DNA of 64,000 bases from the IMG/VR virus record IMGVR_UViG_3300023283_000076, positions 206,654-270,653 of that record. One strand, 5' to 3'. This DNA comes from a virus (lineage: Duplodnaviria > Caudoviricetes). The notes below the pieces were generated by a model. That model was not told where the DNA came from. It did no database searches and saw nothing but the letters and a program-made list of their open reading frames with translations. Of the stretch, positions 1 to 49,334 are shown in pieces (the stretch's first letter is position 1; every line of letters begins with the position of its first letter). The translations under genes were made by a program, and so were the position numbers.

Positions 1-2286
1 ATCTTCTTTGGGTTTGCTTTGTTCGTTTTGCCAATCTTCAATAATCCCATCTCTAAATGGCACAAATTTCCATGGAGCATTGCTGTCTTCTCTAAAAAAG
101 TATACATAGGACGTATCAGTTAACATATAATCTAATGAAATTGCGTCCGGTATCCCATTTTCGTTTTCATCTGTGGGTAGAATACTTAAACTATTAAAAT
201 CACATATTCCTTTATCTATACCTTTATCTAGTGTTTTTCCACTAATCACAAAAAAGTTTTTATTTTCGGAAAGAGGATTTCCGTCAGCGCCGATATTTGC
301 TTTCAACACTACAATGTTATCTTTATTAGAATTTAATGTATCAAAGGTTATAACTCGTTCCTCTTCATTAGTAGAAGTAAATATTATTTCTTCGCTATGT
401 GCGGTTAGGTCCTTGGTCTTAAAGGTAACAATCCAACTACTATCTGATTGAGATTCTATAGCTATATCCCATTCATCTGGTTCTGAAGCAATCTGAAAGC
501 TCCATCTGTTATCTTCTTGGTTATTTTGTATGTTTAAATTAAGATATACTGTATTAGGAGTTGATGTTATTACATTGTTTAGTGCAGACGCAAATTCTAA
601 TAGTTCTACTTCCGTAAAGTTAAAGCGTATGAATTCTGGAGCTACACCATCAAGTATCATAGAATTATAAAAGTCTTGTCTTCTGAATATAGGTTCTATA
701 TGATTAAATATTATGGCGTTTGTTAATGGAACATTTAATCCTCCGTCTTCTGCAGGCAAATCATCTGCAAGTATGTTAAATGTTTTTTCTTCTGTTTCAA
801 AAAATAAAACAAGATCGTTACCGAAAAGTTTCACATTTTCATAGTATTCTTTCGGATCATGCCAGCCTATGAATTTAGAATCTCCTGCAAATGTTCTATT
901 TACTGCTCTTAGCTTCAATATACTATTATTTTGAAGCATAAACTCATTATAGTCTCTTCCATTAACCATTCTATCCTGTGTATAATAAACAGAAGGTGCG
1001 ACTTCTCGTATACGTTCTACCGATTCTGTTGGGGCGGAATTTTGTATAGGTGAGAATAAACTAAAAGTAAAAGAAAATGATTCTATACGACCATCTTCAC
1101 CATTGTACGAAAAATCCCCAGATTTATTTTGTATAGAACTCCTTGGAACAAAGAGAGATGAATCTTCACTATCAAATTCTGTTACTCTATACCATGTGTC
1201 AAATTTTCCTGATGGTATATTAGCAAAATTTCCATCGCCAAATAAAAGTCTAACACCATCATTTGCTAAGGTCTCTATTTCATACTTGTTTCTATTTGGG
1301 GATGTATTAAATAATATATTTTGAGAATTTGCTACATCAACCTCTTGCCATTCTCCTTCTCTGGGTTCATTATACCTTTCTCCACCAGATATTACTTCAT
1401 TAGTTTCACTGTCTATGTTATTTAACCATACATCAGTTTCATTAATTGAGGTTGCATCTATAACTCTTTCTTGGTTTGGTAATATTCCGTCAAACTCGAA
1501 TGTTTGTCGCTGTAAGTTTCCTTGTTTTGTTAGAAAAAAGAACCCGGTATTATTAGATGAGTCTCCCAATCCGTCACTTGCATATAGTATATTTAATTTT
1601 TGATTCCTTTCTGGTCTTTTTTCTTGAGGACCAAACTCAGTCAAATCAGAGCTTACTAATTCCATACTATGCGTGACATTAGAAACAGTTACGTTATATT
1701 GTATGGTTTCGCTCTGTAATGGATTATTTGTTAATGTATAAAGTTCAAATAATACATCTTGTACTTGTACTCTATCAGATGGTAAAACGGTTCCAAATTT
1801 CTGTTCCATAACCTTTTCCATGACCAATATGAACTGTTCTTTCCAATCATCATTGTTAGGATCATTCCAAAATATGGTTTTATTAGTTAGATTATTTCCT
1901 TTACTATCAAAAACAGTTTCTGTAGTGCTTATAGATGTTATTTTTACGAGACCTCTAGCAGGTATTAATCTAGATGGGTTATATGATATGTATTTTGCTA
2001 ACCTTAACACTGATTCTTTTCTTTCTGCAGTAGATAAGAAGTTTTCATGCGTATTAAGGTCTATTCTATATGCTAATAGTTCTCCCAGATACGAAAACAG
2101 TTCTATTATGGCTATCATATCTGAAGTTTCAATATAATCATTGAAATCTTCTGGATAGTATAATTTAAGATAATCAACCATAGATTGTTTTATGGTTTCA
2201 TAATCCCACGCCTTAAAATTTATTTCCTGAAAGGCATCATATGCTCTTTCCCAGTTTTCCGCTATGTTAGGTTGTCTTTTATCCAT
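1..2286 (-). CDS. gp6: Baseplate wedge subunit, T4 gp6-like (partial, runs off window start; absent from ORF track)
   Basis: Translated by hand from ATG at 2286: MDKRQPNIAENWERAYDAFQEINFKAWDYETIKQSMVDYLK...LAYRIDLNTHENFLSTAERKESVLRLAKYISYNP, the gp6-type N-terminus; follows gp25; frame still open at position 1. Confidence 0.85.
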   Translation of the reverse strand, partial: MDKRQPNIAENWERAYDAFQEINFKAWDYETIKQSMVDYLKLYYPEDFNDYIETSDMIAIIELFSYLGELLAYRIDLNTHENFLSTAERKESVLRLAKYISYNPSRLIPARGLVKITSISTTETVFDSKGNNLTNKTIFWNDPNNDDWKEQFILVMEKVMEQKFGTVLPSDRVQVQDVLFELYTLTNNPLQSETIQYNVTVSNVTHSMELVSSDLTEFGPQEKRPERNQKLNILYASDGLGDSSNNTGFFFLTKQGNLQRQTFEFDGILPNQERVIDATSINETDVWLNNIDSETNEVISGGERYNEPREGEWQEVDVANSQNILFNTSPNRNKYEIETLANDGVRLLFGDGNFANIPSGKFDTWYRVTEFDSEDSSLFVPRSSIQNKSGDFSYNGEDGRIESFSFTFSLFSPIQNSAPTESVERIREVAPSVYYTQDRMVNGRDYNEFMLQNNSILKLRAVNRTFAGDSKFIGWHDPKEYYENVKLFGNDLVLFFETEEKTFNILADDLPAEDGGLNVPLTNAIIFNHIEPIFRRQDFYNSMILDGVAPEFIRFNFTEVELLEFASALNNVITSTPNTVYLNLNIQNNQEDNRWSFQIASEPDEWDIAIESQSDSSWIVTFKTKDLTAHSEEIIFTSTNEEERVITFDTLNSNKDNIVVLKANIGADGNPLSENKNFFVISGKTLDKGIDKGICDFNSLSILPTDENENGIPDAISLDYMLTDTSYVYFFREDSNAPWKFVPFRDGIIEDWQNEQSKPKED

Positions 2287-2290
2287 TTAA

Positions 2291-2665
2291 TCATCCAAAA
2301 AAATCTAGTCGTATGTCTAATGTATCATTGAAATTTAGTTCTACATAAAGAAATTCTATTCGTATATTTACCGTTTTGGCATCTGGTTCTGGTTCTATTG
2401 AAAAATTTATTGGTTCTATTCTTGGATCGAAATTTACAATTTCTATGACATCTTCCTCTATTATTGATAATGTTTCTTCATCTAAGGGTTCAAATAATAA
2501 ATCCGGTATTCTAGAACCAAAACGGGGCATCATTACTCTCTCACCGCGTCGTGTAAAAATAAAATTTAATAAATCCTGTTTTACTAAATCAGAATCTTTA
2601 AGCATTATGCTTTTGTTATTTTTATATTGGTTAAAGGATATTCCTTTGTAAAAAATCTGGTCCAT
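2291..2665 (-). CDS. gp25: Baseplate wedge subunit gp25
   Basis: DLLNFIFTRRGERVMMPRFGSRIPDLLFEP...NFDPRI is the GPW/gp25 family signature. Confidence 0.92.
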   Translation of the reverse strand: MDQIFYKGISFNQYKNNKSIMLKDSDLVKQDLLNFIFTRRGERVMMPRFGSRIPDLLFEPLDEETLSIIEEDVIEIVNFDPRIEPINFSIEPEPDAKTVNIRIEFLYVELNFNDTLDIRLDFFG

Positions 2666-2693
2666 TAAATTTATATATTTTGTAGGTCAATTA

Positions 2694-2701
2694 TATTTAT
2701 A
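2694..2701 (-). promoter_or_regulatory. T4-type late promoter TATAAATA
   Basis: Exact T4 late consensus 28 nt upstream of the gp25 ATG. Confidence 0.7.
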
Positions 2702-2707
2702 TAATTT

Positions 2708-3046
2708 TTACCTTCTCCAAAGCGGGCCTCTTTCTATAGTTTCGTCACCTTCAACTCTCCCTATGGGTTCTGCGGTTTGTCTACTCTCTTTGTTCGTATA
2801 CTGATCTATCCAATCTACATTGTTTTTATAACCATCACTCTCTTGATCAACGGTATCCCCTCCGTCTATTTTAAGCACTCTAGGCCACGGTTCATGCATT
2901 GGAACTCTATTAGTCCAAGGAGATATTTCGGATAGAGAAACTTTGGATTTTTCTGCTAAAGGAGGTTGTACAGATTGAAAACGTGGGGCAAAGTTTTCAA
3001 ATTCCTGTACTACGTCTTCGTTTATTGTCCATTCATTGGTATTCAT
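2708..3046 (-). CDS. Small baseplate/spike-associated protein, translationally coupled to gp5
   Basis: 112 aa; ATGA overlap with gp5 stop; RVPMHEPW motif. Confidence 0.6.
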   Translation of the reverse strand: MNTNEWTINEDVVQEFENFAPRFQSVQPPLAEKSKVSLSEISPWTNRVPMHEPWPRVLKIDGGDTVDQESDGYKNNVDWIDQYTNKESRQTAEPIGRVEGDETIERGPLWRR

Positions 3047-5580
3047 GTTAATCCATCTAATCCTTGCGAGTATCCTTGATATATAGAAGCGGTGTCTGTT
3101 AATTGACTATAGTCAAATGCATTTACTGCACTTGGATCTTCTTGTACCAGTTTATTTAAACTATCTATTGTCCTAGAGTGGTCATTTAATTCATTTTCGA
3201 GTTCTGTGACCGGTTCAACTTCTTCAAATCCTACATTTGTATTGTGTGAATCCGCTAAGCTGTTGAATTCTGCTACATTATCCCGCAGATTGCCTATTTC
3301 TGCAGTATATCTGGCAATTTCTTGTCCATTGTCTGTTACTGTTATACTTGCCAAATTTGACAAAGAGAAGTTAATTTCGTCGACCACTCCCTTTATTTGT
3401 CCTATTGAAGAGTCAAACGCAGCCTCTCCGGTTGCCAACGCTGAGGAGAAGCTGTTTAACGAGAGATCTAACTTATCTTTATGTCTATCTGCCCAATCTT
3501 TAAAGTTGTCCAATGTCCATCCGCCCAAATCTATGTTTATCGCTCCGAACATGTTTGTGGGAAGAGGGTTAAAGTTACTTATTTCTAATGGGTCTGCAAT
3601 ATTTATACAGAAATCAAAATCAAACTCTGGAAGATCAATGGCCGGGAATCTAAATGATGGAGGACGAGGAAATGATGGAAGAGCGGGTATTGTAAAACCA
3701 TCCGGAAGTGGTACTAACCAACTATCAACCATTCCTTGTAATCTATCCTGAACAGTGAAAACCAAATCGTTTACATTTGTTTCCAGTTGTTCCAATCCTT
3801 TGTTGATATCTGAAACTCTTGTATCAAGTTTTCCGGTTATGTCACTTATACCACCTTGTACTTTCATGAATACATCTTCTACTGCATCCATGTTTATACC
3901 AACAGGGTCAAATGAGACATTTACACCTCCGTCTATTCTAAGACATTGACTTGATATGGGTTGACCGTCAATTGCCGGTTCACCGTCGATAACTTCAAAC
4001 CCGTTATATACTTGTTGTGCAATTTCTTTAGTACTTTGCATAACCGCTTGTCCCACAGTAAATATATTGATTGCTGGGTTTCTCATTGTTATTTGATTTT
4101 GTCCCTCGTTAGATTTAAGTTTCATGTTTTTCTCTATAGCCTCTAACGTCATATCACCTTCAAATGATTTCAGTGTCATTTCTAGTTGTGATCCAATATC
4201 TACCTTTCCAGTATAAGAGTATATTTCAGTGTCATTAACCGCTTGAATTATATTGTCATCACCAGAAAATATCGATGTATCGCCCGAAACATTGTGATAA
4301 TAATCCCCATCTATAGATATATTATAATTGCCATCGTTTACAATGAAGTCCACACCTGATTCTACTTGTGTTTTTAAACTATCTCCTATGCTTATAAATG
4401 AATTTTTTCCGATTTCTGCAAAAGAATCTTCTTTGATTAAACTTCGAAAATTCTTTTCTACCATTAAATGTGTATCTCCTGTAGAGTGAAATCGGATTTC
4501 ACCATCTTCGGGTTTTCCTTCATCTAACTCTACCTGTTTTTTGGTGTCTCCCGAGTACATGTATATACCCTTTTTAGCTTTAACGCGAAAGGATTCATCA
4601 GTAGAAAAATTTATATCCTTTTCAGCATGCACGGATATTCGTCGTTTGGAATATACATCTATATTTCCATTACTGTCAAATTCTACAACATTGTTTCCTT
4701 CGTTTGTAGAAAGATATATTCTTTCATTTGTGTCATCAAATATTAATTGGTGGCCAGTAGCAGAACGTATTCTTATCCTGTTATTATATGCTCGATCATC
4801 CATGGAGATTGCATGGAAGCCCGGGGTTGACCATCCATATACTTTAGAGGATAAAAAAGACCCAAGTGCTTTATTAGACGACCAATCATACCCATGAGCA
4901 CCCAGAATATCCTTTACCCATTCATCACTTTCTTCTTCTGATATTCCTTCATATTGTTCATCTAAATATTCTTCTAGATTTTCTGCTGGTATGGGGCCAT
5001 CTTCTGGTATCGCACATGCCTGATACTCTGCCTGTCTTGTTTTCCATTCTCTAGATTCTCTATTATTCTCAAATGCTTTACCTGCATTTGTATAATATGG
5101 CTCTATGGGGTTGCATTTTGATGATAGTGGACCATCTGGTTCTCCATTGCCGTCCCATTTGTATCTTCCATGTAATAGAGTATGAGTTTCTTGATGACTG
5201 GGTATACATCCAAGCCAAACTCGTCGTCTTTCATCACCATCTATTTTTGCGACAAGTACCACTGCACCTTGTTCTGGTACTCCCCAAAAACCATATGATA
5301 CAGCCCCTCCAGTTTTTTCTGGTCCCTTTCCTGCACCTCTAGTAAATTCTGAGTTGGAAATTGTTCCGGCCAATGGGGATGCACATACAGCCCACGGGAG
5401 GTGATGCAATTTCTTGGGACTATCATTTAAATTGGGACAATATACCCTAAGACGTCCGTTTTGTAATGGATCGTCCGTATCTACCACAACACCTACAGTT
5501 ATTGAATCATGTGCAATGGTTCCTCTGCCGACATCAAGTTGTTCGTTTACTATTTTTAATAAAGTTGTTGAATCTAACAT
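3043..5580 (-). CDS. gp5: Baseplate central spike gp5-like (OB fold + beta-helix, long C-terminal extension, no recognisable lysozyme)
   Basis: VGVVVDTDDPLQNGRLRVYCP (gp5 OB fold); GHQLIFDDTNERIYL/GNNVVEFDSNGNI beta-helix entry; baseplate context. Confidence 0.82.
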   Translation of the reverse strand: MLDSTTLLKIVNEQLDVGRGTIAHDSITVGVVVDTDDPLQNGRLRVYCPNLNDSPKKLHHLPWAVCASPLAGTISNSEFTRGAGKGPEKTGGAVSYGFWGVPEQGAVVLVAKIDGDERRRVWLGCIPSHQETHTLLHGRYKWDGNGEPDGPLSSKCNPIEPYYTNAGKAFENNRESREWKTRQAEYQACAIPEDGPIPAENLEEYLDEQYEGISEEESDEWVKDILGAHGYDWSSNKALGSFLSSKVYGWSTPGFHAISMDDRAYNNRIRIRSATGHQLIFDDTNERIYLSTNEGNNVVEFDSNGNIDVYSKRRISVHAEKDINFSTDESFRVKAKKGIYMYSGDTKKQVELDEGKPEDGEIRFHSTGDTHLMVEKNFRSLIKEDSFAEIGKNSFISIGDSLKTQVESGVDFIVNDGNYNISIDGDYYHNVSGDTSIFSGDDNIIQAVNDTEIYSYTGKVDIGSQLEMTLKSFEGDMTLEAIEKNMKLKSNEGQNQITMRNPAINIFTVGQAVMQSTKEIAQQVYNGFEVIDGEPAIDGQPISSQCLRIDGGVNVSFDPVGINMDAVEDVFMKVQGGISDITGKLDTRVSDINKGLEQLETNVNDLVFTVQDRLQGMVDSWLVPLPDGFTIPALPSFPRPPSFRFPAIDLPEFDFDFCINIADPLEISNFNPLPTNMFGAINIDLGGWTLDNFKDWADRHKDKLDLSLNSFSSALATGEAAFDSSIGQIKGVVDEINFSLSNLASITVTDNGQEIARYTAEIGNLRDNVAEFNSLADSHNTNVGFEEVEPVTELENELNDHSRTIDSLNKLVQEDPSAVNAFDYSQLTDTASIYQGYSQGLDGLT

Positions 5581-5584
5581 GTTA

Positions 5585-7462
5585 TTATACCAATACGTCC
5601 GTTCTTAATAAGAAAAGCTTTTGAAAAAAAGATCCAGCTTTTATTACATTCTCTATTTTATATATGTGCATCCATTCACTATGATAAAATGCACTTTCTA
5701 CTGTTGAGTCAGTATCTTCTATTGGGTTGTGTTTAATAATTACTTTAGCATATATAGGAAGAACCTCTGGCTTTTCATAGTATATTGCATTACCGGGATC
5801 TCCAGCGGCTGCATCTCTAGGGGATCTAAATATATCCGATAACAAATTCGGGTTCCCTCGTATAGTTATTTCCAGTGAGGATTGTTGTGTATTTTGTACA
5901 GGATATTTTATTTTTATATTGTCTGCTAATTCTCTTGGATATTCTACTCCAAGAGTTTTAATATTTAACACATTTGCACGATTTCCACTATAACCCGCTT
6001 TGAAGAAGTTGATATTAGGTTCTCTTTCTGCACTTATTTCTTCTCGCTCTGCACCAAAAGAAAGTCTTCCGGCTTCCGTATCTATTACGTCTTCAATTAC
6101 CAACAGAGAATCAGATCTACGTAATATTCCATTCACTGTCATAATGTCGTCACGATTTATCATGTTTCCATCTTCTGAAGATTCGCCTGTTTCTGAATTG
6201 GCCGACTGGGCCGATTGATCAGCGTTTCCGGCTCCTTTGAAGAAAAATGTCAAGGGATCTTTCGATGATTCAGCAGCATCTCCACTGTTAAATCCATCTA
6301 CTTTATTTATCGGCAAAAAATAGCTTTTTACCCATATATCATATTTAACTTCATTGAGCAGTCGTCTCCATGTTAATCCAACTTTATAATCTCTCCGGGC
6401 ACCGTTTCCACCTGCGCCGCCCCTAGCTTCTACACCAACCTGTTTAGAATACTCCATCATTCGATCTACTGTATCTTGTATATTTTCTCCATAGCGTGTC
6501 GGTATTGCCCGTACACCGGGAAGATTTTGTCTTTGTTCTGGTTGTTCAAACGGAAGGTTTCTATTATTGATTAAAAACGGTTCAAATACATCATCTAAAT
6601 GCATTATATATTCTATGGGCAATTCTTCTGCTTTTATTTGTATGGGATCTTTGATTTTATCAGTAAAATCTTCACGTATTATACCTTGCCAGTGTTGATA
6701 CTGTTTATCATGCAATTTATTATTTTCGTTTAGTTCCAGTTCTAATGCTTCAAACGCTTGTTTAAGATTTTCCATTGGTTTACTTTTTTCTATTCGTTCA
6801 AGTCGTTTGCTTTCTTTTTCAGAATCTTCATCCTTCCTAGGTTTTATAGAACCTTCGCTTGGATCGGCTTCCGGGATTTCATCATGTAACGCACCATCTT
6901 TATGTGTGATTGTCGTATTATATATTCTAGTAAAATTTGTATAATGTGCTTTTGCGTTATATAATGGAACTATATCTGCAATATAAAAATGCATATTCCC
7001 TGTTAGTTTGTGTTCTATTTGGGATATAGAAAAGAAGAGTCTATTCGGTGATATTATGTCATCTTCGTCATTATCGGGTATGAAAAATAATTTCATGGAA
7101 AATGTTATATTTTCTAGAGAGGTGTCTAGTTTCTCTAATATCTCTGTTTTTAAAAATGTTAAAAACTCACCAGCAGTAGTGTCCGTTATGATTAAATTGC
7201 CGCCAGAGCTTGTAGTGTTTATATGTTCTCCCACCCAATTAAAATCGAATCTAAAATCCTTCACTAAAAATCTGCTAGGTGCGATTCTTTCCCTTATAGA
7301 ATCGTTAATCATAACAATACCGGGTCCCGCAGGCGCACCCTCGGGGCCATCTCCTAAAGATAAGTCTCGTTGTTCTGCCTCGTCGGTTCTTTTAAATGCC
7401 GCTATTACATAATATGTGGTATAACTATTGGGGGATTCTAATGGATTTACTGGTAACGACAT
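5585..7462 (-). CDS. Probable baseplate hub protein (gp27-like position)
   Basis: 625 aa between gp53-like and gp5; C-terminal LEITIRGNP...IYKIENVIKAGSFFQKLFL resembles hub C-termini. Confidence 0.5.
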   Translation of the reverse strand: MSLPVNPLESPNSYTTYYVIAAFKRTDEAEQRDLSLGDGPEGAPAGPGIVMINDSIRERIAPSRFLVKDFRFDFNWVGEHINTTSSGGNLIITDTTAGEFLTFLKTEILEKLDTSLENITFSMKLFFIPDNDEDDIISPNRLFFSISQIEHKLTGNMHFYIADIVPLYNAKAHYTNFTRIYNTTITHKDGALHDEIPEADPSEGSIKPRKDEDSEKESKRLERIEKSKPMENLKQAFEALELELNENNKLHDKQYQHWQGIIREDFTDKIKDPIQIKAEELPIEYIMHLDDVFEPFLINNRNLPFEQPEQRQNLPGVRAIPTRYGENIQDTVDRMMEYSKQVGVEARGGAGGNGARRDYKVGLTWRRLLNEVKYDIWVKSYFLPINKVDGFNSGDAAESSKDPLTFFFKGAGNADQSAQSANSETGESSEDGNMINRDDIMTVNGILRRSDSLLVIEDVIDTEAGRLSFGAEREEISAEREPNINFFKAGYSGNRANVLNIKTLGVEYPRELADNIKIKYPVQNTQQSSLEITIRGNPNLLSDIFRSPRDAAAGDPGNAIYYEKPEVLPIYAKVIIKHNPIEDTDSTVESAFYHSEWMHIYKIENVIKAGSFFQKLFLLRTDVLV

Positions 7463-7839
7463 TATTGTTCTATGGGTTCTTTTTGTATATTTCTATTTAC
7501 AAGTGAAGATAGCGTGCGATCAACATCAGGTAATAATATTTCTTTACCTGTTATAAACTCTTCTTCAATGTCTACTATATTATTATATTGAAGTACTAAC
7601 CAAAATAAATTCGATTTTCTGTATACTCTAAATGCCAACAAATCTGGTCTTTTAGAAAATACTTCTGGTATTGTTATGCGTATGTCAGTAGCAGTATTTT
7701 TTTGAAGTGGTCTACGTTCCCACCATCCTAGTTTGTTTCCTTTGATTTCAGTATCACCACCATTTAACATTCTAGAATTTCTTTTTGCTAATGATGTTTT
7801 GTCTCTAAAAAGTTTAAATCTGTTGTTTTTACCAGCCAC
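7462..7839 (-). CDS. gp53: Baseplate wedge gp53-like / LysM-type protein
   Basis: RPDLLAFRVYRKSNLFWLVLQYNNIVD...GKEILLP motif. Confidence 0.72.
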   Translation of the reverse strand: MAGKNNRFKLFRDKTSLAKRNSRMLNGGDTEIKGNKLGWWERRPLQKNTATDIRITIPEVFSKRPDLLAFRVYRKSNLFWLVLQYNNIVDIEEEFITGKEILLPDVDRTLSSLVNRNIQKEPIEQ

Positions 7840-8461
7840 CTAATTCACCTCTTCTAAATTTATCTATATCAAACTGTCTTAATTCGTTTATTGATCTAGC
7901 TTCTTTTAATGACACCGAAACAGGCCAAATTATTGGTACATCATGTCCGTTGTCAGTTCTTATATAATCGACATCCTCGGGTTCTTCAATAGTAAGACTA
8001 GTTATTCTAACTTTAATACTATTAAACCAATTACCAAATCCTCTTAGTGTTAGTCTTGATGGGGTTTTAAGAGCATTTAACCCTCCTCCCGATTGTTCTG
8101 GCATTCTCCATGATCGTAATAGTTGAACGCTTTTCCAACTTTTACGTGCTTCTGATTTGGATCTGGAAACAAAACGCCCATTTATGGAGAACTCTCTACT
8201 AGGTGTTCCCATGTATATAAGCATGTTTGCCGCTTGTCGTATATCCCCAATTTCAAAATAAGACACACTCCCGGATTCTGAAAGTGTAGGTTGAATATCA
8301 AACTCTACTTTACCGGTTTCTTCCCCTTGCACTGGTACTTGAGCTTGGACGCCCGCAATCCCGGTGGGAACTGATCTAGTAGTACCAGTACTTTCATCAA
8401 TATCATTACCAGTTAATGTTATTTTTCTATTTGAAGGAATTCTTGATGCGTTAGCTGCCAT
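7829..8461 (-). CDS. Tail-tube initiator / baseplate protein (gp48/gp54-like)
   Basis: IYMGTPSREFSINGRF and P-x-L-TL-G-GNWF...V-ITSL...PEDVDY pattern; first gene of baseplate operon. Confidence 0.55.
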   Translation of the reverse strand: MAANASRIPSNRKITLTGNDIDESTGTTRSVPTGIAGVQAQVPVQGEETGKVEFDIQPTLSESGSVSYFEIGDIRQAANMLIYMGTPSREFSINGRFVSRSKSEARKSWKSVQLLRSWRMPEQSGGGLNALKTPSRLTLRGFGNWFNSIKVRITSLTIEEPEDVDYIRTDNGHDVPIIWPVSVSLKEARSINELRQFDIDKFRRGELGGW

Positions 8462-8490
8462 ATTTTTTTCTTACGTTTAAATGTTGTACA

Positions 8491-8498
8491 TATTTATC
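8491..8498 (-). promoter_or_regulatory. Late promoter GATAAATA (baseplate operon)
   Basis: nATAAATA 29 nt upstream of ATG at 8461. Confidence 0.6.
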
Positions 8499-8536
8499 CG
8501 TTTAAAGTGTTTCTAATTTCATCTTTATAAGTATAG

Positions 8537-8544
8537 GATAAATA
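8537..8544 (+). promoter_or_regulatory. Late promoter GATAAATA (divergent)
   Basis: nATAAATA 26 nt upstream of ATG at 8571. Confidence 0.6.
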
Positions 8545-8570
8545 TTGTTTAGTATTAGAATTAATTAATT

Positions 8571-9569
8571 ATGCAAGAAAACAATAAACAACCTAATCCT
8601 CTTATAGAAAAGAGTAGGGCAGCTATTCCGGGTGTTGTATTTCGTCTTCCCTCACGAGGGAAAATATATGATGAGGGTGTATTAGACGAAGGTGTAGAAG
8701 AAGGCGAGGTGCTAGTATATCCAATGCGCCTAAAAGAGGAACTCAAAATGAAATCAGTGGATTCTATCTTACAAGGAACTGCTGTTTCTGATTCTATTAA
8801 ATATTGTGTTCCTGAAGTGTTAGATCCTTTGAAATTGTGCCCGGAAGATGTTGATTATTTAATAACAACAATTAAAAAAATGACTCATGGTAGTACGTTT
8901 AAATTTAAAGATACTTGCATGAAATTAGAAGACCATACAAATATTCCTACACCAGATAATGCATTATCTGAAATGAGTGAAGAAAATAGAACAAGTAATA
9001 TTGAACTCCCCGAAGATGTCTCTCAAGATGACTCTGAGGGTTCTGAAAACAAAGCTGACACGCAAGATGCAATTAAAAAAGAAAATATAAACAATCTTGG
9101 AGAAAATAGTAGCGTATGTGAATTTAACGTGTCTTTGGATTTTTTTCTTAATAATGCAAAAGAACTTAATATTGATGAATATAAAGAAAAAAATGCATTA
9201 ACATTGAATGGATTTAATATAGAATTTCATCCCATCACATTTGAAGCGTTTAAAGAATTAAATACGTTAAATCTTAAAGACCAAACTAAAATGGATGATG
9301 AAGAATATTTTAATTTTATAAATGAATTTAGTAATGTTAATATAGCTAGAAGAATTAAAAAAGTTGATGATATATCAGATCCAAATATTATATCTGAATG
9401 GGTAGAAACGTTATCTTTAAGTGATAGAGAAAAAATATTTAATAAGGTAGCTGAACTGCAAGACTGGGGTATAGACTTTTCGTATAATATTAAATGTAAT
9501 ACATGCGGGAAAACTAAAAAAACGGATCAATCATATATAAATCCGTTGTATTTTTTTTTAATATACTAA
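8571..9569 (+). CDS. gp26: Baseplate hub assembly protein gp26-like, with acidic insertion
   Basis: RLPSRGKIY...VYPMRLKEELKM...L-PEDVDYL; C-terminal CNTCGK zinc knuckle and INPLYFF end. Confidence 0.75.
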   Translation: MQENNKQPNPLIEKSRAAIPGVVFRLPSRGKIYDEGVLDEGVEEGEVLVYPMRLKEELKMKSVDSILQGTAVSDSIKYCVPEVLDPLKLCPEDVDYLITTIKKMTHGSTFKFKDTCMKLEDHTNIPTPDNALSEMSEENRTSNIELPEDVSQDDSEGSENKADTQDAIKKENINNLGENSSVCEFNVSLDFFLNNAKELNIDEYKEKNALTLNGFNIEFHPITFEAFKELNTLNLKDQTKMDDEEYFNFINEFSNVNIARRIKKVDDISDPNIISEWVETLSLSDREKIFNKVAELQDWGIDFSYNIKCNTCGKTKKTDQSYINPLYFFLIY

Positions 9570-9601
9570 AGATCGGAAATACTGAGGAAATTACAAAATA
9601 T

Positions 9602-9808
9602 ATGAAAGCCCTGCAAAAGGGTAGCAGAAATCTTATACAATCTGCTATACATATATCATATTTCATGCGTGGAGGCATTCAGTATGAAGATGTACTTGAA
9701 AGAACTTTCTTTGAAAGAAGCGAAATGATAGATTACATAAATGATAGGATAAAACGTGAATCAGAAAAATGCAGGGAGAGTAAAGGAAAGCTCCCGCCAA
9801 TATACTAA
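9602..9808 (+). CDS. gp51: Baseplate hub assembly catalyst gp51-like
   Basis: 68 aa after gp26; YFMRGGIQYEDVLERTFFER pattern. Confidence 0.55.
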   Translation: MKALQKGSRNLIQSAIHISYFMRGGIQYEDVLERTFFERSEMIDYINDRIKRESEKCRESKGKLPPIY

Positions 9809-27390: not shown

Positions 27391-28893
27391 ATGTGTTTAA
27401 TCTTTAAAATGCCCGTAGAAGATTTATATTTTTTAACCAAAGAATACCCGCCAAGACGTAGTACGTCTAACGTTCGTATAAAATATCCTAAAGAATATGA
27501 AAAATTATTAGAATTAACCAGCTTCTTGCCCGATACTGCAACAACATCCCAACGCCTATGGCATGTTCGCCATGATAAATTCGAACTCCCTACGTGCGAA
27601 TACGAAAATTGTACTAAACCTACAAAATGGACACCTCCGTATTCAGATTATGCACGTTTTTGCTCTACAAGATGTTTCAATAAAAATAAAACAAAGAATG
27701 CAGAAATTGACAAACATCGTAAAAATATAGAAAAGTATGGCGAAAGCTATGAAGATTTGACAACATCAGATAAAATGAAATTGACCAATGTTAAACGATA
27801 TGGTGTGGATAATCCATTTAAGAATGTCAATAGGATACGAAAAATCAATAATGGAAAATATGGGTGCGATTTTCATTTTCAGCAACATTTATCTGAAGAT
27901 TCTTTGAATAAATTGAATGACAAAGAATGGTTAGTTGAAATGAATCATAACCAGAAACGTAGTTGTGTAGAAATTTCAGAAATTTTAGGGGTTAATAATT
28001 CTACAGTAAATAAAGCAATGTATAGACTAGGAATTATGCCCAATTATGTTTATTCATCAAGTCACTTCGAGAAACAGTTGGTATTATATTTAAGAAGTCA
28101 ACATATTACAATAGCTGAAAATGATAGGTCTATTATAGCACCATTAGAACTAGATATTATGCTACCAGATCACAATCTTGCGATAGAATATTGTGGATTG
28201 TACTGGCATAACGAACTACACAAAAATAAAAATTATCATGAAAATAAGTACAAAAAATGTAAAGAGGTAGGAGTTGATTTATTAACCATATATGAAGATG
28301 AATGGCATGATAAATCTGAATTAATAAAAAAAATGATAATGCATCGAATAGGAATGAATACAGCTACTAAAATATACGCTAGAAGTTGTAAAATAACTGA
28401 GGTGTGTTCAATAGATAAAAAGGAGTTCTTTGATAATACACATGTTCAGGGAAATGGCCCAAGTTCTATTAATGTGGGATTATATCATAATGATAGTTTA
28501 GTGGCTTGTATGGGATTGATAAGAACGAAAAATAAAGGGATGGTATTGAATAGATTTTCTACAAAAAATATTGTTCCCGGAGCATTTTCGAAATTGTTAA
28601 AATATGTATTAAATACATATAAACCAAGTGAAGTAATAACTTTTGCAGATCTTAGATGGGGTGATGGAAAATTATATCAATCTAATGGTTTTATATTAGA
28701 CAAAAAATTAAAGCCTGATTATTATTATGTTTACCAAAATAAAAGATTTCACAAATTTAATTTTAGACATAACAAACTCAAAAAACTATTATCTCATTAT
28801 GATCCTAATAAATCTGAACACGAAAATTGTTTAAACAATAACATCTTCAGAATATACGATTGTGGAAAATATAGGTTCGTTTTTAGAAAATAA
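27391..28893 (+). mobile_element. Free-standing homing-endonuclease-like CDS: Zn/DNA-binding N-terminus + Vsr-like PD-(D/E)xK nuclease + Mom-like GNAT domain
   Basis: CEYENC...FCSTRC; ELDI...AIEYCGLYWH...LLTIYEDEW nuclease motifs; C-terminal LNRF...PGAFSKLLK...TFADLRWGDGKLYQSNGF. Confidence 0.8.
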
Positions 28894-41260: not shown

Positions 41261-42763
41261 ATGAATAATAAAAAACAAAAACATATTATTAATAATATGC
41301 TTAATTCTGTGGACCTTATGGGGCGATGTATTGATATTATTGAACCCACATTTTTTGACCCTGAATATATACCGCATATAAAATTTCTTTTAGATTATCA
41401 TATAAAATATAATACAAATCCGTCACCCGAATTGATGAATTCAGAAATCGATTCAGAAATTATATATGAAAAGTATACGATTCCCACAGATGAAATTGAA
41501 TATACTGCAGAAGAAGTTGAATCGTTTTGTAGACAATCTGCAATGCGAGATGCGATAACAGAAAGTTTTTCATTGATACAGGAAAACAATTTTGGTGAAG
41601 TATATAAAAAAGTTTCAGATGCATTAAACGTAAGTTTAAAAAAAGATTTGGGATTAGACGTATATGAAGATCCAGAAAATAGATTAAATAAAATGTTGGA
41701 AGAGTTGGATTATATCCCTTCAGGTATTAAAAGTTTAGATAATTTAATGGGTGATGGTGCACTAAGGAAACAATTTCAAATAGTATCAGCAAATTCAGGG
41801 GGAGGGAAATCGGTATTTTTGTCAAATATTGCCAACAATTATTCGTTACAAGGATTAGATGTTGTATACATATCTTTAGAATTACCACCAGAAATGATAT
41901 TTTTGCGGCAAGCTTATATTATGACTTCCTTTTCTCATCGTGTATGGAAAAGTAAAATACCAGAAATAGCTTCGAAAATGTCAGAGTTTAAAAAGTTCGG
42001 AGTTGGAAATTTTAGAATAGTGAGACTTCCAATAGGAAGCAATGCAAACGCAATACGCGCATATTTAAAGCAATATGAGATAGAATTCGAAAAAACACCT
42101 GACGCATTAATAGTTGATTATTTGGATCTAATGTCACCTATTTCAGGGGCAAAAAATAAAGGAATTTCAGAGCAAGACAAAGAAAAATCTGAAGAGATAT
42201 ATGAACTGCTTCATACATATGATATGATTGGTTGGTCTGCGTCTCAACAAAACAGAGACGCGTTAAAAATGAATTCGCCCGATCAGTCGGTAGTAGCAGG
42301 TGGGCTCTCAAAAGTTAATATATGTGATAATTGGATATCTGTTTATATGAGTGGGGAGATGCGGCTTGCGGGCGAGCTTATGATATTTATGTTAAAAACA
42401 AGATATGCAGATGGGCAACATCAGAGTTCTTTGTTATCGTTTGACGATGGTAGTTTAAAGATATCAGATCATGAAACTCCTGATAAATCTGAAGATTTGA
42501 TCCGTCAAATTGAGAAACGAAAAAATAATAAAAGTTCTTCGAAAGAGAAAGAGGTATTAGAGTCGGTGATTGATGCAAGAGAGATTGATTTACCCGGCGC
42601 ACAAAACGATGAAGAAACTAAGATAATAAATAACAGATTAGACCGTCTAAAAAAAGACCTAGTAGATTTTTCAGATGAAGATGATAATGAGCCAATACAC
42701 GAAAATCAAGATTTATTAGATCTTATAGAAAGTACAAATCATTTACAAACAAAGGATAGTTAA
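41261..42763 (+). CDS. gp41: Replicative DnaB-like helicase gp41
   Basis: SANSGGGKS Walker A, YISLEL, LIVDYLDL, WSASQQNR, KTRY. Confidence 0.92.
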   Translation: MNNKKQKHIINNMLNSVDLMGRCIDIIEPTFFDPEYIPHIKFLLDYHIKYNTNPSPELMNSEIDSEIIYEKYTIPTDEIEYTAEEVESFCRQSAMRDAITESFSLIQENNFGEVYKKVSDALNVSLKKDLGLDVYEDPENRLNKMLEELDYIPSGIKSLDNLMGDGALRKQFQIVSANSGGGKSVFLSNIANNYSLQGLDVVYISLELPPEMIFLRQAYIMTSFSHRVWKSKIPEIASKMSEFKKFGVGNFRIVRLPIGSNANAIRAYLKQYEIEFEKTPDALIVDYLDLMSPISGAKNKGISEQDKEKSEEIYELLHTYDMIGWSASQQNRDALKMNSPDQSVVAGGLSKVNICDNWISVYMSGEMRLAGELMIFMLKTRYADGQHQSSLLSFDDGSLKISDHETPDKSEDLIRQIEKRKNNKSSSKEKEVLESVIDAREIDLPGAQNDEETKIINNRLDRLKKDLVDFSDEDDNEPIHENQDLLDLIESTNHLQTKDS

Positions 42764-43055: not shown

Positions 43056-43628
43056 TTGAAATATAATATAAAATGGAACATGCTTATGAATACTGAAACT
43101 GACGAAAGTGAAGAAGACTATAAAAACGTAGAAACTACAAAAAAAGCTCATGCGCTAGAAAAATGGTTAAACTTAGAAGAAGAGTCTACTGAAGTTGAAA
43201 AGGTTACATATAATTTCCCACGAAAAGAATCTAAACATTATGATTCAAAGGATCGTGAGATAGAAGAACAGGCCCACAAAATATTTGAAGAAGCAATGTC
43301 TGGCTATCTTAGCTTGGAAAGTTTATTATCCAGTATAGAACCCAAATACAGAGCACGAATGGCCGAAGTTGCTCTGGCGTATTTAAATACTGCTCTTGAT
43401 GCGACAGATACTAAAAATAAACAAAAAGAATCATTAGAAAAACTAAAACTCCAAAAAGAGAAATTACTAAGGGGCTCAGATAAATCTGATAGTACAGTAT
43501 TTGTTACTGCGGATAGAAATAAATTATTAAAAGAACTCCGTAAAGAATATGATAAGCGTAATGGGGTAATTGACATTAATTCAGACGATTCAGACGATTC
43601 AGACGAAGGAAATACTGAAAATGATTGA
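43056..43628 (+). CDS. gp16: Probable terminase small subunit gp16-like
   Basis: PKYRARMAEVA...LNTALDA...KLK and C-terminal FVTADRNKLLKEL parallel T4-type TerS patterns (PRAYEVA; FVGST-EL). Confidence 0.6.
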   Translation: MKYNIKWNMLMNTETDESEEDYKNVETTKKAHALEKWLNLEEESTEVEKVTYNFPRKESKHYDSKDREIEEQAHKIFEEAMSGYLSLESLLSSIEPKYRARMAEVALAYLNTALDATDTKNKQKESLEKLKLQKEKLLRGSDKSDSTVFVTADRNKLLKELRKEYDKRNGVIDINSDDSDDSDEGNTEND

Positions 43629-44439: not shown

Positions 44440-46146
44440 ATGGCGCTTAAAAGATTTGAAAATATGGAAGACTTTCTAGCTAAGTATAAAGCGGCTAACA
44501 AGTCAAAGCTTAGAATTGAAGAATTGGCTTACATAATGAATGTAAAGCCGGATACTATAGCTAGAAGGAAAATATCAGTCAAACACCACATGGGAATTGA
44601 ACTCCCACAATTAAAACGGTATGGGGGTGATTTGAAAAAAGTAAATTCTGTTATTCCTTCAGAAGAAAGCAATGAAAAATTTTGCGCCGCACTGGAAAAG
44701 CTTAGAGAAGCTAGTGAAACTTTTGTAGTTGAAGAGAAAAAAGAAAGGCGTAAGATTTATGTAATAACATCTGCACAAAATGCTACTCCTATATTTACAA
44801 ACTTCTTACAATCCATAAAAGTTTATCTCAAGGAACGGGGTGCTGAACTTATGATCATCCCCAATAGATATCGAAACCCAACATCAATCTGGTCTGATAT
44901 GAATAAAGATAATGAATGGTGGGATCATCGGATACAAAAATATCTAGTCGATAAACGAGTTAGACTCAATAATAATATTGATGTAATGGGAAATATAAAA
45001 ATACAGCCTACTGCAGTTAATCCATTAGGCGGTTTTGAAACTTACACAGGAGAGTCTTCTGCTATATTTGGTCATCCGTCAATTCAATTAAAGAGTGTCC
45101 CGACCCCTGCTAAATCTATGGCTAAAATACTTTCCACCACAGGTTCAATAACACAACCTAATTATACAGATAGTAAAGCAGGTCATAAAGGCGAGTTTAA
45201 CCACTGTTATGCTGCGGCTATTGTAGAAATAGATAATGGGGCCTTTTATACTAGACATATTCATGCAAACAAAAATGGAGAATTTTATGATTTGGACCGA
45301 TATTATACTGCTAATGGCTCTACTAAAGTAGAGTCCATTCCTGCCCTTATAACAGGAGACATACATGCAGCATTTCATGATGAGGAAGTAGAAAAAGCAA
45401 CATATACTAATAATGATTCTATAGTTAACACATTGAAACCGGAAAATTGGGTTATTCATGATTTAGAAGATTTTTATTCTAGAAATCACCATCATAAAGA
45501 TAATGATATATTAGCGTTTGGGAAACATCACTTTAACAAACGAGACAATGTTGAAGAGAGTTTGCAAATTTCAGCAGATTTTGTTGATAGACATTCCAGA
45601 CCTTTTATGAAAAATATAATTGTTAGGTCCAACCATGACGAAGCATTCGACCGATGGTTAAAAGAAGCTGATCCTAAAAAAGACCCTGAGAACGCTCTTT
45701 TTTATCATTATATGAAATATCATCAATATAAAAATGTGGTAGAAACGTCTACCAGTTATAAAACCATAGATGCGTTTGAATTTTGGTGTAAACATCCAGA
45801 TTCATGTAGGGGACTAGAAAATATAGAAAACACTACATTTCTTAGTAGAGATGAAAGAGATCCTAAAAGAGTTATAAAAGGAATAGAAATAGGTTACCAT
45901 GGCGATGAGGGGCCTAATGGAACACGGGGAACTTTAAATAATTTATCTAAAATAGGACCTAAAATCGTTATTGGTCATAGTCATTCCCCCGGAATACTGA
46001 ATGGAACATATCAGGTAGGTGTTAGTGCTAGAACCGATCTAGAGTATGCTTCTGGTCCCTCAAGTTGGCTCCATACTCATTGTCTAATATATCCTGATGG
46101 GCATAGAACACTAATACATATAGTAAAGGAGAAATGGAGATTATAA
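44440..46146 (+). CDS. Calcineurin-like metallophosphoesterase with N-terminal HTH-like region
   Basis: GDIH, HD, SNHD, YHGD and GHSH metal-binding motifs; IEELAYIMNVKPDTIARR HTH-like. Confidence 0.8.
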   Translation: MALKRFENMEDFLAKYKAANKSKLRIEELAYIMNVKPDTIARRKISVKHHMGIELPQLKRYGGDLKKVNSVIPSEESNEKFCAALEKLREASETFVVEEKKERRKIYVITSAQNATPIFTNFLQSIKVYLKERGAELMIIPNRYRNPTSIWSDMNKDNEWWDHRIQKYLVDKRVRLNNNIDVMGNIKIQPTAVNPLGGFETYTGESSAIFGHPSIQLKSVPTPAKSMAKILSTTGSITQPNYTDSKAGHKGEFNHCYAAAIVEIDNGAFYTRHIHANKNGEFYDLDRYYTANGSTKVESIPALITGDIHAAFHDEEVEKATYTNNDSIVNTLKPENWVIHDLEDFYSRNHHHKDNDILAFGKHHFNKRDNVEESLQISADFVDRHSRPFMKNIIVRSNHDEAFDRWLKEADPKKDPENALFYHYMKYHQYKNVVETSTSYKTIDAFEFWCKHPDSCRGLENIENTTFLSRDERDPKRVIKGIEIGYHGDEGPNGTRGTLNNLSKIGPKIVIGHSHSPGILNGTYQVGVSARTDLEYASGPSSWLHTHCLIYPDGHRTLIHIVKEKWRL

Positions 46147-46147
46147 A

Positions 46148-47086
46148 ATGAATAAACGTAAACTAGGGAAAGATTTATATCATGTAAAAGTAGATTTCTC
46201 TGATAGATGGGAAAAAATACCAATTACTAAAAAGGAAAAATATTTAGATCGTTTACGACTAAGTTTAAAACACAATTTTCCAGAGTACTCGTGGATAGTG
46301 ACGGATGAGAGGATAAATATAGAAAGTATTTCTCCAATCGACGCACCAGAACTTTATGAAGTGGATGAATTATACAACCATCAGAAGCTTATGTTAGATA
46401 ACATGAAATCTGATGGTAATACTATTATTGAAACGTCCAGACAATCAGGGTCAACTCATGTATTATTAGAGTATATTAAACATATATTAGAAAATAACGA
46501 AGGGTATTTAATTCGTTATACGGGGTCACCGAGACGGGCTGATGTATTACATATGTTACACGAAAAGCTTAATCCAACATTAGTAAGCCAAACTAATAGC
46601 ACGTTAACTTTTTTCACAACCGGAACCTATAAGCCTAATAAAGTACATGTGTTATCTCCTGATACACATCATATGGATCATAGTGATATTAGGGGATGTT
46701 CCTATAATGGTGTAATAGATGTTTATGATAATAATAGAATCATTGACTCGCAATTTTGGGAAAGATTAAAAAAATCGAATGATGTATTATGTCATTTTGC
46801 TTGTAATGGCAACTTTAAATTTATATTAACACGCACTGGACAACCAGATCCTACATATAGAAAAATATTATTGACCGGAAGACTTAATGATTTATATTTT
46901 GCAAATAGATTAAAATTAGATTATACCGAGATTGCTTTACTGAACAAAGATCAGGAAAATCCACCAGATGCTCTACCGAATATGTTTAGAAATCAAAAAT
47001 ATTCAGAACTAAAATATCAAATCGGGGAAAAATGCTTTAACCGGGAACATAGATTGCACTTAGATTTAGATGGGGGACACTACTAA
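46148..47086 (+). CDS. Degenerate paralogue of the terminase large-subunit ATPase domain
   Basis: LYNHQKLMLDNMKSDGNTIIETSRQSGST aligns to adjacent TerL LYDYQEDMVDLYNSDDDVIIMSARQTGKT; further matches DIRG/SGRG, SQFW/EKFW, QIGEKCFNREH/KIGKRKWYQEY. Confidence 0.7.
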   Translation: MNKRKLGKDLYHVKVDFSDRWEKIPITKKEKYLDRLRLSLKHNFPEYSWIVTDERINIESISPIDAPELYEVDELYNHQKLMLDNMKSDGNTIIETSRQSGSTHVLLEYIKHILENNEGYLIRYTGSPRRADVLHMLHEKLNPTLVSQTNSTLTFFTTGTYKPNKVHVLSPDTHHMDHSDIRGCSYNGVIDVYDNNRIIDSQFWERLKKSNDVLCHFACNGNFKFILTRTGQPDPTYRKILLTGRLNDLYFANRLKLDYTEIALLNKDQENPPDALPNMFRNQKYSELKYQIGEKCFNREHRLHLDLDGGHY

Positions 47087-47115
47087 GTCTCCATATATCG
47101 ACTAGATAAATGTTT

Positions 47116-47123
47116 AATAAATA
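47116..47123 (+). promoter_or_regulatory. Late promoter AATAAATA
   Basis: 25 nt upstream of TerL ATG. Confidence 0.55.
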
Positions 47124-47148
47124 TCTGTGACCCTTCATAGATATTTGC

Positions 47149-48782: not shown

Positions 48783-49334
48783 ATGAAACTAGAGTCTTTA
48801 TTTTTAATTGAGCGAACCATGGCGTCGTTAATATCCATTACGAAAAACTCTTTTGGAAGCAGTAGAGAAAATGACGCAAATAAGGTTCAAGTGAAAGATG
48901 TAGAATATATACCCTTTGTAGAAGAGGGGATAATACAAGTAAAAGCAAAAACGTTTAGTGGTCCAGATTCAAATGAATATCAAAGCATAATACTAATTGA
49001 GGATATAGAATATATTAATGAAGAAGAATTTAATGAAATGTCTGGTAACGCAGGATTTGAAATTACGTCGCCAGATGGTACCCCATTCTATATTAAAGAC
49101 GCCCAAACCAATAATGACGTAAAAGTGCGGTGTAGTTGTGAGGATTTTCGATGGAGGTTTGCTACATATAATCATAAGGACAATAGTTTATATGGTAACT
49201 CACCAGAAGCATATGCAAAAAAAACAGATAGACCTTCGGTAAATCCTACTAATAGTCCCGGAGTTTGTAAGCATTTAATAAAACTTAAAAAAGAATTAGA
49301 AAGAGAAGATTTTTTTAGAACGTTATTGCATTGA
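48783..49334 (+). CDS. SWIM-type zinc-finger protein
   Basis: VRCSCEDF...GVCKHL (CxC-n-CxH). Confidence 0.75.
   Translation: MKLESLFLIERTMASLISITKNSFGSSRENDANKVQVKDVEYIPFVEEGIIQVKAKTFSGPDSNEYQSIILIEDIEYINEEEFNEMSGNAGFEITSPDGTPFYIKDAQTNNDVKVRCSCEDFRWRFATYNHKDNSLYGNSPEAYAKKTDRPSVNPTNSPGVCKHLIKLKKELEREDFFRTLLH

Follow-up and report, generated by a model that had tools for sequence, protein, structure and literature searches.

We describe a small gene placed directly before the large terminase gene (TerL) of a tailed phage, in the IMG/VR virus record IMGVR_UViG_3300023283_000076. The window, by which we mean the whole stretch of 64,000 nucleotides (nt) under analysis, is the final 64 kb of this 270,653-bp record (positions 206,654 to 270,653), which CheckV rates as ~79% complete. 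The source virus is a T4-superfamily jumbo phage, and its TerL is ~50% identical to the TerL of Xanthomonas phages Xoo-sp13 and XacN1 and of Stenotrophomonas phages CM1 and RAS14. At the locus, a gene for a T5 A1-like protein is followed by the open reading frame (ORF) at 46148-47086, by a short leader, and by an intact TerL (Pfam Terminase_6N at 7e-16, PHROG TerL at 1e-72). The ORF very probably encodes a TerL-derived pseudo-ATPase that is kept by selection. An earlier note, drawn from the letters of the DNA, had claimed a nuclease-less copy of the TerL ATPase domain upstream of an intact TerL, and this claim has stood up to profile alignment, reciprocal models, and fold matches.

Descent from the TerL ATPase domain is shown by profiles and by predicted structures. 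Overall, the pseudo-ATPase is ~15% identical to TerL, and BLASTP against the neighbouring TerL aligned only the P-loop segment (LYNHQ..ETSRQSGST with LYDYQ..MSARQTGKT; 14 of 36 residues identical, E 1e-5). Alignment by hhalign of a pseudo-ATPase family profile with a profile built from 20 TerL ATPase domains gave a probability of 94.4% and an E value of 9.4e-8 (target 74-188, TerL 54-169). At a relaxed alignment threshold, the match continues colinearly through IDVYD/LYCDE, SQFW/EKFW, ILTRT/IISST, and GEKCFNREH/GKRKWYQEY and finishes where the ATPase domain does, at TerL residue ~270-279; the Terminase_6C match of TerL begins at 321, and the pseudo-ATPase has no RNase H-like nuclease domain. 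All motif pairs listed in the earlier note (LYNHQ, SQFW, ILTRT, GEKCFNREH, and their TerL counterparts) were reproduced by alignment, as was its observation that the protein stops where the nuclease would start. A hidden Markov model (HMM) built from the pseudo-ATPase family only matches genuine TerLs at ~1e-8; in the other direction, a TerL-only HMM matches the family (P0132 at 7e-7, P0005 at 1e-3, P0128 at 2e-3; proteins carry P numbers and related loci L numbers throughout).

Family databases bear on the same point from the other side. Pfam PF03237 (Terminase_6N), which has a gathering cut-off of 22 bits, scores P0129 at 21.0, P0132 at 19.3, and the slot-mate P0130 at 30.2, and gives no match to the pseudo-ATPase of the window (P0001) at E <= 1. 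As judged by these scores, the pseudo-ATPase is homologous to Terminase_6N but too diverged for the Pfam model. Direct scans with the pseudo-ATPase returned a sub-threshold LPD29 match only from Pfam and none from PHROGs; a profile search of PDB sequences gave a chance match only, and tblastn against 50,697 phage records gave no match. The ESM Atlas holds a single-sequence model of this exact protein (predicted template modelling score, pTM, 0.62), whose nearest structural neighbours are all Terminase_6N clusters, with template modelling (TM) scores of 0.54-0.58 by query and up to 0.77 by target over residues ~67-312; feature-space neighbours stand at 0.96. A model by AlphaFold2 (AF2), computed from a joint multiple sequence alignment (MSA) with TerL sequences, reached a predicted local distance difference test (pLDDT) score of 74.6; AF2 run on 5 family sequences alone gave pLDDT 46, too poor for use. 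Foldseek searches with the former model returned the ATPase domains of P74-26, D6E, and T4 gp17 at 4e-8 to 1e-6, together with those of herpesvirus, Sf6, and HK97 terminases. Because the MSA holds TerL sequences, the AF2 fold is partly built in, and so the ESM Atlas model serves as the independent check. With hhalign, the ESM Atlas model, and Foldseek all matching the terminase fold, we conclude that the pseudo-ATPase is a complete TerL ATPase-domain fold (additional strand catalytic glutamate, ASCE, core plus lid) without a nuclease domain.

The active site is altered in a consistent manner. Residue conservation was read from a joint alignment of 30 paralogues and TerLs. Ser102 aligns with TerL Lys82 in the Walker A motif, as the earlier note had it, and no member of the pseudo-ATPase family has a lysine there. 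In Walker B, which that note had called eroded, the outcome is divided: the catalytic glutamate is indeed lost, with Val192 opposite TerL Glu174, but the Walker B aspartate is retained, Asp191 being invariant in all 30 aligned sequences. Phe203 is kept as well. The arginine of the IRG motif aligns with TerL R163, 11 residues ahead of the catalytic glutamate. Trans-acting arginines are established in terminases, namely R139 of P74-26 and R158 of D6E (PMC5727402), and the IRG arginine is a candidate equivalent of these. Within the five-member family alignment, 63 columns are invariant and grouped in motifs; among them is a family-specific patch in the lid region, FxNRLKxDxxExALLN, a candidate functional surface. 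Taken together, the residue pattern suggests that hydrolysis would not be possible and that nucleotide binding, or display of a TerL-like pocket and finger, would be.

Ahead of the ATPase domain sits an add-on module that does not derive from TerL. AF2 predicts elements E9-15, H26-43, and E47-53 at pLDDT 75-90. The unique N-terminus of ~70 amino acids (aa) described in the earlier note is a real and separable module, missing from the L006/L011 alleles. A likeness to it occurs at the locus L007 in P0131 (4317-4931), which consists of a TerL N-terminus with GTS in its Walker A motif, a deletion of the domain middle, and a C-terminal tail resembling the module (residues ~165-204; ~35-40 aa; hmmsearch 1e-3 with the next background match at 0.6; hhalign E 3e-4, 40%). 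Possibly the module is mobile and lands in every case just before a TerL-type ATPase sequence.

Selection on the gene was gauged from the ratio of non-synonymous to synonymous substitution rates (dN/dS) by the Nei-Gojobori method. The pseudo-ATPase has dN/dS of 0.18 between the window and L006/L011 (dS ~0.9) and 0.22 between P0132 and P0129, with 0.42 in one very close pair that has few changes. Among neighbouring genes, TerL stands at 0.02, and the small terminase-like (TerS-like) and 288-aa genes stand at 0.12-0.15. A value of ~0.2 is not neutral: the gene codes for protein and is under purifying selection, on the relaxed side for its neighbourhood. The ORF is open and full length in the window, in L001-L004, L005, L008/L012, and L014, despite identities of 20-45%; the L006/L011 allele is open too, beginning MCSDKLYNHQ in place of the module. 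Translation signals are likewise in order: the ATG lies 1 nt past the stop of the T5 A1-like gene (TAA ending at 46146), and GGAG lies 8 nt upstream. The suggestion that this is not a decaying pseudogene is thus borne out by the intact ORF of the window, the dN/dS of 0.18-0.22, and the Shine-Dalgarno sequence with translational coupling, with the exception of one frameshifted copy, in L018/L019, to which we return. The features of the locus are collected in Table 1.

Table 1. Features at and around the pseudo-ATPase gene, in window coordinates
Feature	Position	Strand	Basis or remark
DnaB-like helicase	41261-42763		First in local gene order
92-aa ORF			Between the DnaB-like helicase and the TerS-like gene
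Candidate small terminase (TerS-like), 190 aa	43056..43628	+	phrog_445 terminase small subunit, E 5.3e-5, full profile length
288-aa ORF			Between the TerS-like gene and the T5 A1-like gene
T5 A1-like protein, 568 aa	44440..46146	+	phrog_1745 1e-158; left cassette border; translationally coupled to the pseudo-ATPase
Pseudo-ATPase coding sequence (P0001), 312 aa	46148..47086	+	ORF translation, syntenic homologues, dN/dS ~0.2
N-terminal add-on module, ~aa 1-66, not TerL-derived	46148..46345	+	Predicted beta-alpha-beta
LYNHQ, counterpart of TerL LYDYQ adenine-binding (Q) motif	46370..46384	+	Gln79 kept, nearly invariant across paralogues and TerLs
Degenerate Walker A/P-loop ETSRQSGST	46430..46456	+	Lys replaced by Ser102; Arg98, Gly101, Thr103 retained
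IRG, counterpart of TerL GRG motif	46688..46696	+	Gly183 nearly invariant; R or K in most members
Walker B strand VIDVYDN	46712..46732	+	Asp191 kept; catalytic Glu position is Val192
FILTRTG, counterpart of TerL motif III CIISSTP	46820..46840	+	Thr230 kept
Family-specific patch FxNRLKxDxxExALLN, lid region, no TerL counterpart	46898..46945	+	Invariant columns, five-member alignment
C-terminal helix motif GEKCFNREHRLHL, counterpart of TerL GKRKWYQEYECRF	47018..47062	+	Gly293, Glu300 nearly invariant; ATPase domain ends here
TerL leader, right cassette border	47114..47148	+	Homology to relatives returns at 47114/47115
Intact large terminase TerL, 529 aa	47149..48738	+	ATPase with GKT and DE, then RNase H-like nuclease domain
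183-aa ORF after TerL	48783-49334		Kept in all relatives
gp32-like single-stranded DNA-binding protein, then UvsX/RecA-like protein			Downstream of the 183-aa ORF

Homologues are few and uniformly placed. Across 5.8 billion clusters and 1.8 billion representatives we found a handful, all just before TerL; exhaustive HMMER search of the 1.8 billion representatives gave 6 proteins, all family members. In this jumbo-phage clade, the slot before TerL holds 0, 1, or 2 TerL-ATPase paralogues that lack the Walker A lysine. L007, with a TerL at 77% identity, carries P0130 besides P0131; P0130 is 34-36% identical to TerLs over ~200 aa, has GRT in Walker A, and keeps the DE of Walker B. L014 combines the family member P0128 (lysine to leucine) with P0137, which is TerL-like, has no P-loop, and has the Walker B aspartate replaced by tyrosine. 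P0132 and P0129 of L008/L012 have lysine replaced by valine and the catalytic glutamate by leucine. At L008, pseudo-ATPase and TerL are separated by ~370 nt (4632-5000) that are GC-rich and contain GTGAACGAA repeats; this stretch is missing at other loci and looks foreign in an AT-rich phage.

A cultured phage has a gene of this kind. Xoo-sp13 gp242 (QDJ96428.1; L009:6286-6981), annotated as a terminase small subunit, aligns with its own TerL over 247 aa at 27.5% identity (E 8e-22), lacks a nuclease domain, and has GTS in Walker A and D-V in Walker B, the catalytic glutamate being lost. A homologue search with gp242 left it a singleton, and no TerS family of Pfam or PHROGs matches either the pseudo-ATPase or gp242. 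Since gp242 is clearly a TerL-ATPase paralogue, its label is probably positional. Gp242, P0130, P0131, and P0137 resemble the pseudo-ATPase in being nuclease-less, lysine-less, and directly before TerL; they differ in that they keep the TerL N-terminal segment (C..DP.YF..) where the pseudo-ATPase has the add-on module. Against the TerL HMM, the slot-mates and gp242 score E 1e-25 to 1e-48, so that they are much nearer to TerL, and they are not detectably nearer to the pseudo-ATPase than TerL is. The TerL-ATPase paralogues are mutually diverged, at 15-35% identity. From every one of them the Walker A lysine is gone, in various ways: it is replaced by S, L, V, T, or R, or the P-loop is deleted. 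That the lysine was lost differently in each copy suggests that selection for a form unable to hydrolyse ATP has been repeated or sustained.

Few sequenced phages have a second TerL-ATPase copy: the TerL ATPase was matched in 2820 phage records, and these contain no more than 74 extra TerL-ATPase-like places, some of them split genes. The most diverged copies, the pseudo-ATPase among them, escape tblastn. We considered the short 'TerL' ORFs of CBB and Atu_ph07 (BFVD) as instances of the same phenomenon and rejected them: that of Atu_ph07 at least belongs to a split TerL gene. In Phosso, the second TerL-like place does not adjoin its TerL.

The gene behaves as a cassette. Over the 5,964 nt that lead to the stop codon of the T5 A1-like gene, L006 and L001 share 99.5% identity; their pseudo-ATPase genes are then unalignable beyond a 114-nt P-loop patch (46% protein identity), and homology returns ~20 nt before the pseudo-ATPase stop and continues through the TerL leader. 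Alleles of 41-46% identity are thus swapped with precision, from the upstream stop codon to the promoter of TerL. Between the window and L018, the DNA is 80% identical to position 46518, past the P-loop, then divergent, and 96% identical from 47115. The T5 A1-like protein is 84% identical to its relatives, versus 46% for the pseudo-ATPase. Downstream, TerL is 90-95% identical among phages with differing pseudo-ATPase alleles, and co-evolution of the pseudo-ATPase with TerL was not seen, the alleles assorting independently of TerL. Sharp borders, divergent alleles, and loss indicate a discrete exchangeable cassette with old divergent alleles that is dispensable in at least one lineage.

Between the cassette and TerL lies a leader that may carry information on timing. 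A late-promoter-like box, AATAAATA (47116-47123), sits within the 5' arm of a 13-bp hairpin (47118-47147; RNAfold -12.4 kcal/mol), and the 3' arm of that hairpin stops 1 nt short of the TerL AUG, which lacks a Shine-Dalgarno sequence. Over the 35 nt leading to the AUG, the window, L001, L003, L005, L006, L011, and L018 are near-identical, despite the 41-46% identity of the preceding gene, and the hairpin has a G-U pair in the window where relatives have A-U. The same box-in-hairpin layout recurs with different sequence in more distant relatives, RAS14 among them (L014:5120-5182, L008:4940-5003, and L020:4935-4997). By its position and conservation, the AATAAATA box is a candidate late promoter; a scan for sigma-70 promoters and terminators was uninformative in this AT-rich DNA. 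The paradigm for such an arrangement is T4 lysozyme (gene e), where a late promoter lies in a hairpin, read-through transcripts mask the start, and late transcripts are translatable. The TerL leader looks like the gene e strategy for silencing read-through transcripts. If the hairpin blocks TerL translation from read-through in this way, transcription would enter from the pseudo-ATPase gene while TerL must stay off, and the pseudo-ATPase would then probably be expressed pre-late, before TerL.

The surroundings of TerL are also rich in mobile elements. The TerL of the window is itself uninterrupted by an intein. Those of several relatives are interrupted: the L003 TerL (1093-3591) has an intein after ...PTLS; the 968-aa L011 TerL (6767-9673) matches Intein_splicing and LAGLIDADG; and the L018 TerL (3987-6880) has two inteins, one splitting Walker B (LLY|CDE) and the other after QEYEC. 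Nested in the Walker B intein of L018 is a free-standing Hef/Mom-like homing-endonuclease ORF, 32% identical to the product of window 27391-28893. This Hef-type endonuclease also matches Pfam DUF7487, as does a 595-aa gene directly upstream of P0128 (L014:1841-3628). From these sequences, the TerL neighbourhood is a hot spot of selfish elements and homing. Homing-driven co-conversion can explain the mosaicism of TerL and the sharp right border; it does not account for the upkeep of deeply divergent, intact pseudo-ATPase alleles.

Other neighbours call for brief comment. The T5 A1-like product has homologues in Xoo-sp13 and XacN1 that carry the T5 A1-like annotation, and by eye it shows metallophosphatase-looking motifs (GDIH, NHDE, GHSH). 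The TerS-like gene, which gave no match in a Pfam scan, is the sole TerS-like gene, and three genes (the 288-aa ORF, the T5 A1-like gene, and the pseudo-ATPase gene) intervene between it and TerL; in T4, genes 16 and 17 adjoin. The 183-aa product encoded after TerL has a Cys/His pattern, CSCEDF...CKH, that resembles a SWIM-type zinc finger by eye; its Pfam scan was empty, and its sole PHROG match was phrog_18980, of unknown function.

Comparison with known systems helps to place the protein. It shares with TerL of the T4 gp17 type (Terminase_6N plus Terminase_6C) the ASCE fold and the order of motifs, namely the Q motif, P-loop, RG, Walker B, FW, motif III, and the C-terminal G..QE..F helix; it differs in the absent nuclease domain, the replaced Walker A lysine and catalytic glutamate, the extra N-module, and its variable presence. 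Split or intein-interrupted TerL genes of jumbo phages (Atu_ph07 in two pieces; L003, L011, and L018) also present short TerL N-terminal ORFs, but these pieces belong to a single active TerL, in which GKT and DE are intact, and are joined by splicing, whereas the pseudo-ATPase is a diverged extra copy before a complete TerL. Non-catalytic paralogues are familiar among P-loop ATPases: clamp-loader delta/delta', F1 alpha, and the Rad51 paralogues are likewise duplicates without hydrolysis that keep the fold and parts of the pocket. Unlike the pseudo-ATPase, which is hypervariable, dispensable in some lineages, and independently assorting, those subunits are conserved, obligatory, and co-evolving.

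What might such a protein do? Our preferred reading, held tentatively and with somewhat less than even confidence, is that it modulates packaging by mimicry of TerL. The pseudo-ATPase could not hydrolyse ATP, though it may still bind it; imitating the TerL ATPase domain, it would occupy a surface that normally receives that domain, on another TerL protomer, on TerS, or on the portal, and in this way it would modulate the assembly or activity of terminase as a dispensable factor. Read-through transcripts from its gene would fold at the leader and fail to translate TerL, so that the mimic would be made in the pre-late phase, ahead of TerL. Such timing would suit a protein that restrains or chaperones terminase made early or by leakage, or one with an early role in conflict, better than it would suit a stoichiometric subunit of the motor. 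We rank the modulator first since the gene has just one invariant feature, its adjacency to TerL. Several points weigh against it. Dead subunits of ring motors are usually poisonous, which makes a positive role inside the ring unlikely. The gene evolves ~10x faster than TerL at non-synonymous sites, and its alleles assort independently of TerL, as where L011 and L003 have TerL DNA 97% identical and different pseudo-ATPase alleles. In the copy of L018/L019, a single lineage present in two data sets, a frameshift falls within the codons of the P-loop, the remainder being open in another frame, and no such gene lies beside TerL in XacN1, RAS14, RsoM2USA, or PA5oct. As to timing, for which the sequence is the sole basis, the WATAAATA box shows no enrichment across the window (24 found against 35 expected). 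Cassette swapping, independent assortment, the frameshift, and absence from XacN1 and RAS14 argue against an obligatory hetero-subunit of the motor; the same results fit an accessory or conflict gene.

The leading rival, possible though on balance doubtful, places the gene at the phage-host interface, where a TerL look-alike meets terminase-sensing receptors of the Avs1-3 type. The protein could be a decoy or inhibitor that blunts the receptor, as the earlier note proposed for a decoy, or it could be an otherwise useful protein that is itself sensed and is for that reason diversifying, losing modules, or lost. Hypervariability, independent assortment, and probable early expression keep both versions in contention: alleles 41-46% identical are exchanged cassette-like in 99.5% identical backgrounds, presence and copy number vary in the slot, the N-module is lost in one allele and the frame in another, and a TerL-like pocket shape is retained without catalysis. 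Yet STAND (signal transduction ATPases with numerous domains) sensors are activated by ligand binding, which would make a faithful mimic a liability. The accessory protein Ksap2 (Bas60_220) of coliphage Bas60, whose likeness to the TerL ATPase domain is weak and structural only, triggers the host Avs2 receptor (Bechon et al. 2024, PMC11564622). Ksap2 differs from the pseudo-ATPase, to which no relationship in sequence is expected, in that it is not reported beside TerL and is known as an Avs2 trigger rather than a decoy; because it is sensed, liability is at least as likely as decoy for the pseudo-ATPase. The dN/dS well below 1, from few sequences, and a homing-rich neighbourhood that could by itself yield the mosaicism also tell against conflict with the host. 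The bolder proposal, that the slot is an arms-race locus at which hypervariable dead terminase mimics, made before TerL, manipulate or evade terminase-sensing host receptors, strikes us as rather unlikely.

Conflict could instead run between phages, with a dominant-negative mimic that poisons the terminase of co-infecting relatives or satellites and spares its own. Dead subunits do poison ring ATPases, satellite-encoded proteins block helper-phage terminase by a similar logic, hypervariable alleles circulate among co-occurring near-identical phages, and the inteins and Hef-type homing endonucleases in and beside TerL make the locus a hot spot of inter-phage selfish elements; but a TerL 90-95% identical across allele carriers leaves little room to tell self from non-self, and we regard this interference as improbable. 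The same crowding by inteins and homing endonucleases could have produced mere relics, partial TerL duplications from homing or recombination with little or no function that slowly decay. P0131 without its domain middle, P0137 without a P-loop, and the frameshifted allele have this appearance. For the pseudo-ATPase, a relic is very improbable, given an ORF intact in the window and four further alleles or lineages (and open in L006/L011), dN/dS similar to that of neighbouring genes, 63 invariant columns clustered in motifs, and a good Shine-Dalgarno sequence with translational coupling. Least probable of all, in our judgement, is a functional equivalent of the small terminase, acting in DNA recognition or TerL activation. 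The position directly upstream of TerL is that of a T4-type TerS, TerS genes are typically variable, and gp242 bears the small-subunit label; the fold, however, is that of the TerL ATPase, neither protein matches a TerS family, gp242 is a TerL-ATPase paralogue with a probably positional label, a separate TerS-like gene exists (43056-43628, phrog_445), and the pseudo-ATPase gene is missing or broken in relatives.

The fold and the parent family are well known. A literature search covering inactive terminase paralogues, pseudoenzymes, Avs decoys, and a jumbo-phage overview (PMC7824862) found no such paralogue described, and a dead, nuclease-less TerL copy beside TerL appears undescribed in the literature searched. 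One practical consequence is a warning against positional TerS annotation in jumbo phages. Another is that cultured Xoo-sp13, with a related gene mislabelled as small terminase, provides a tractable test system. The wider interest lies in TerL itself, the single enzyme that all tailed phages share, which is also among the main targets of pattern-recognition immunity in bacteria. If the pseudo-ATPase is a packaging modulator, it would add a new regulatory layer to the terminase motor. With a conflict role, it would be the first mimic of terminase to act in warfare between phage and host or between phages; and should the slot prove to be an arms-race locus, its proteins would represent the first counter-defence by terminase mimicry, or else a new class of 'bait' that is sensed.

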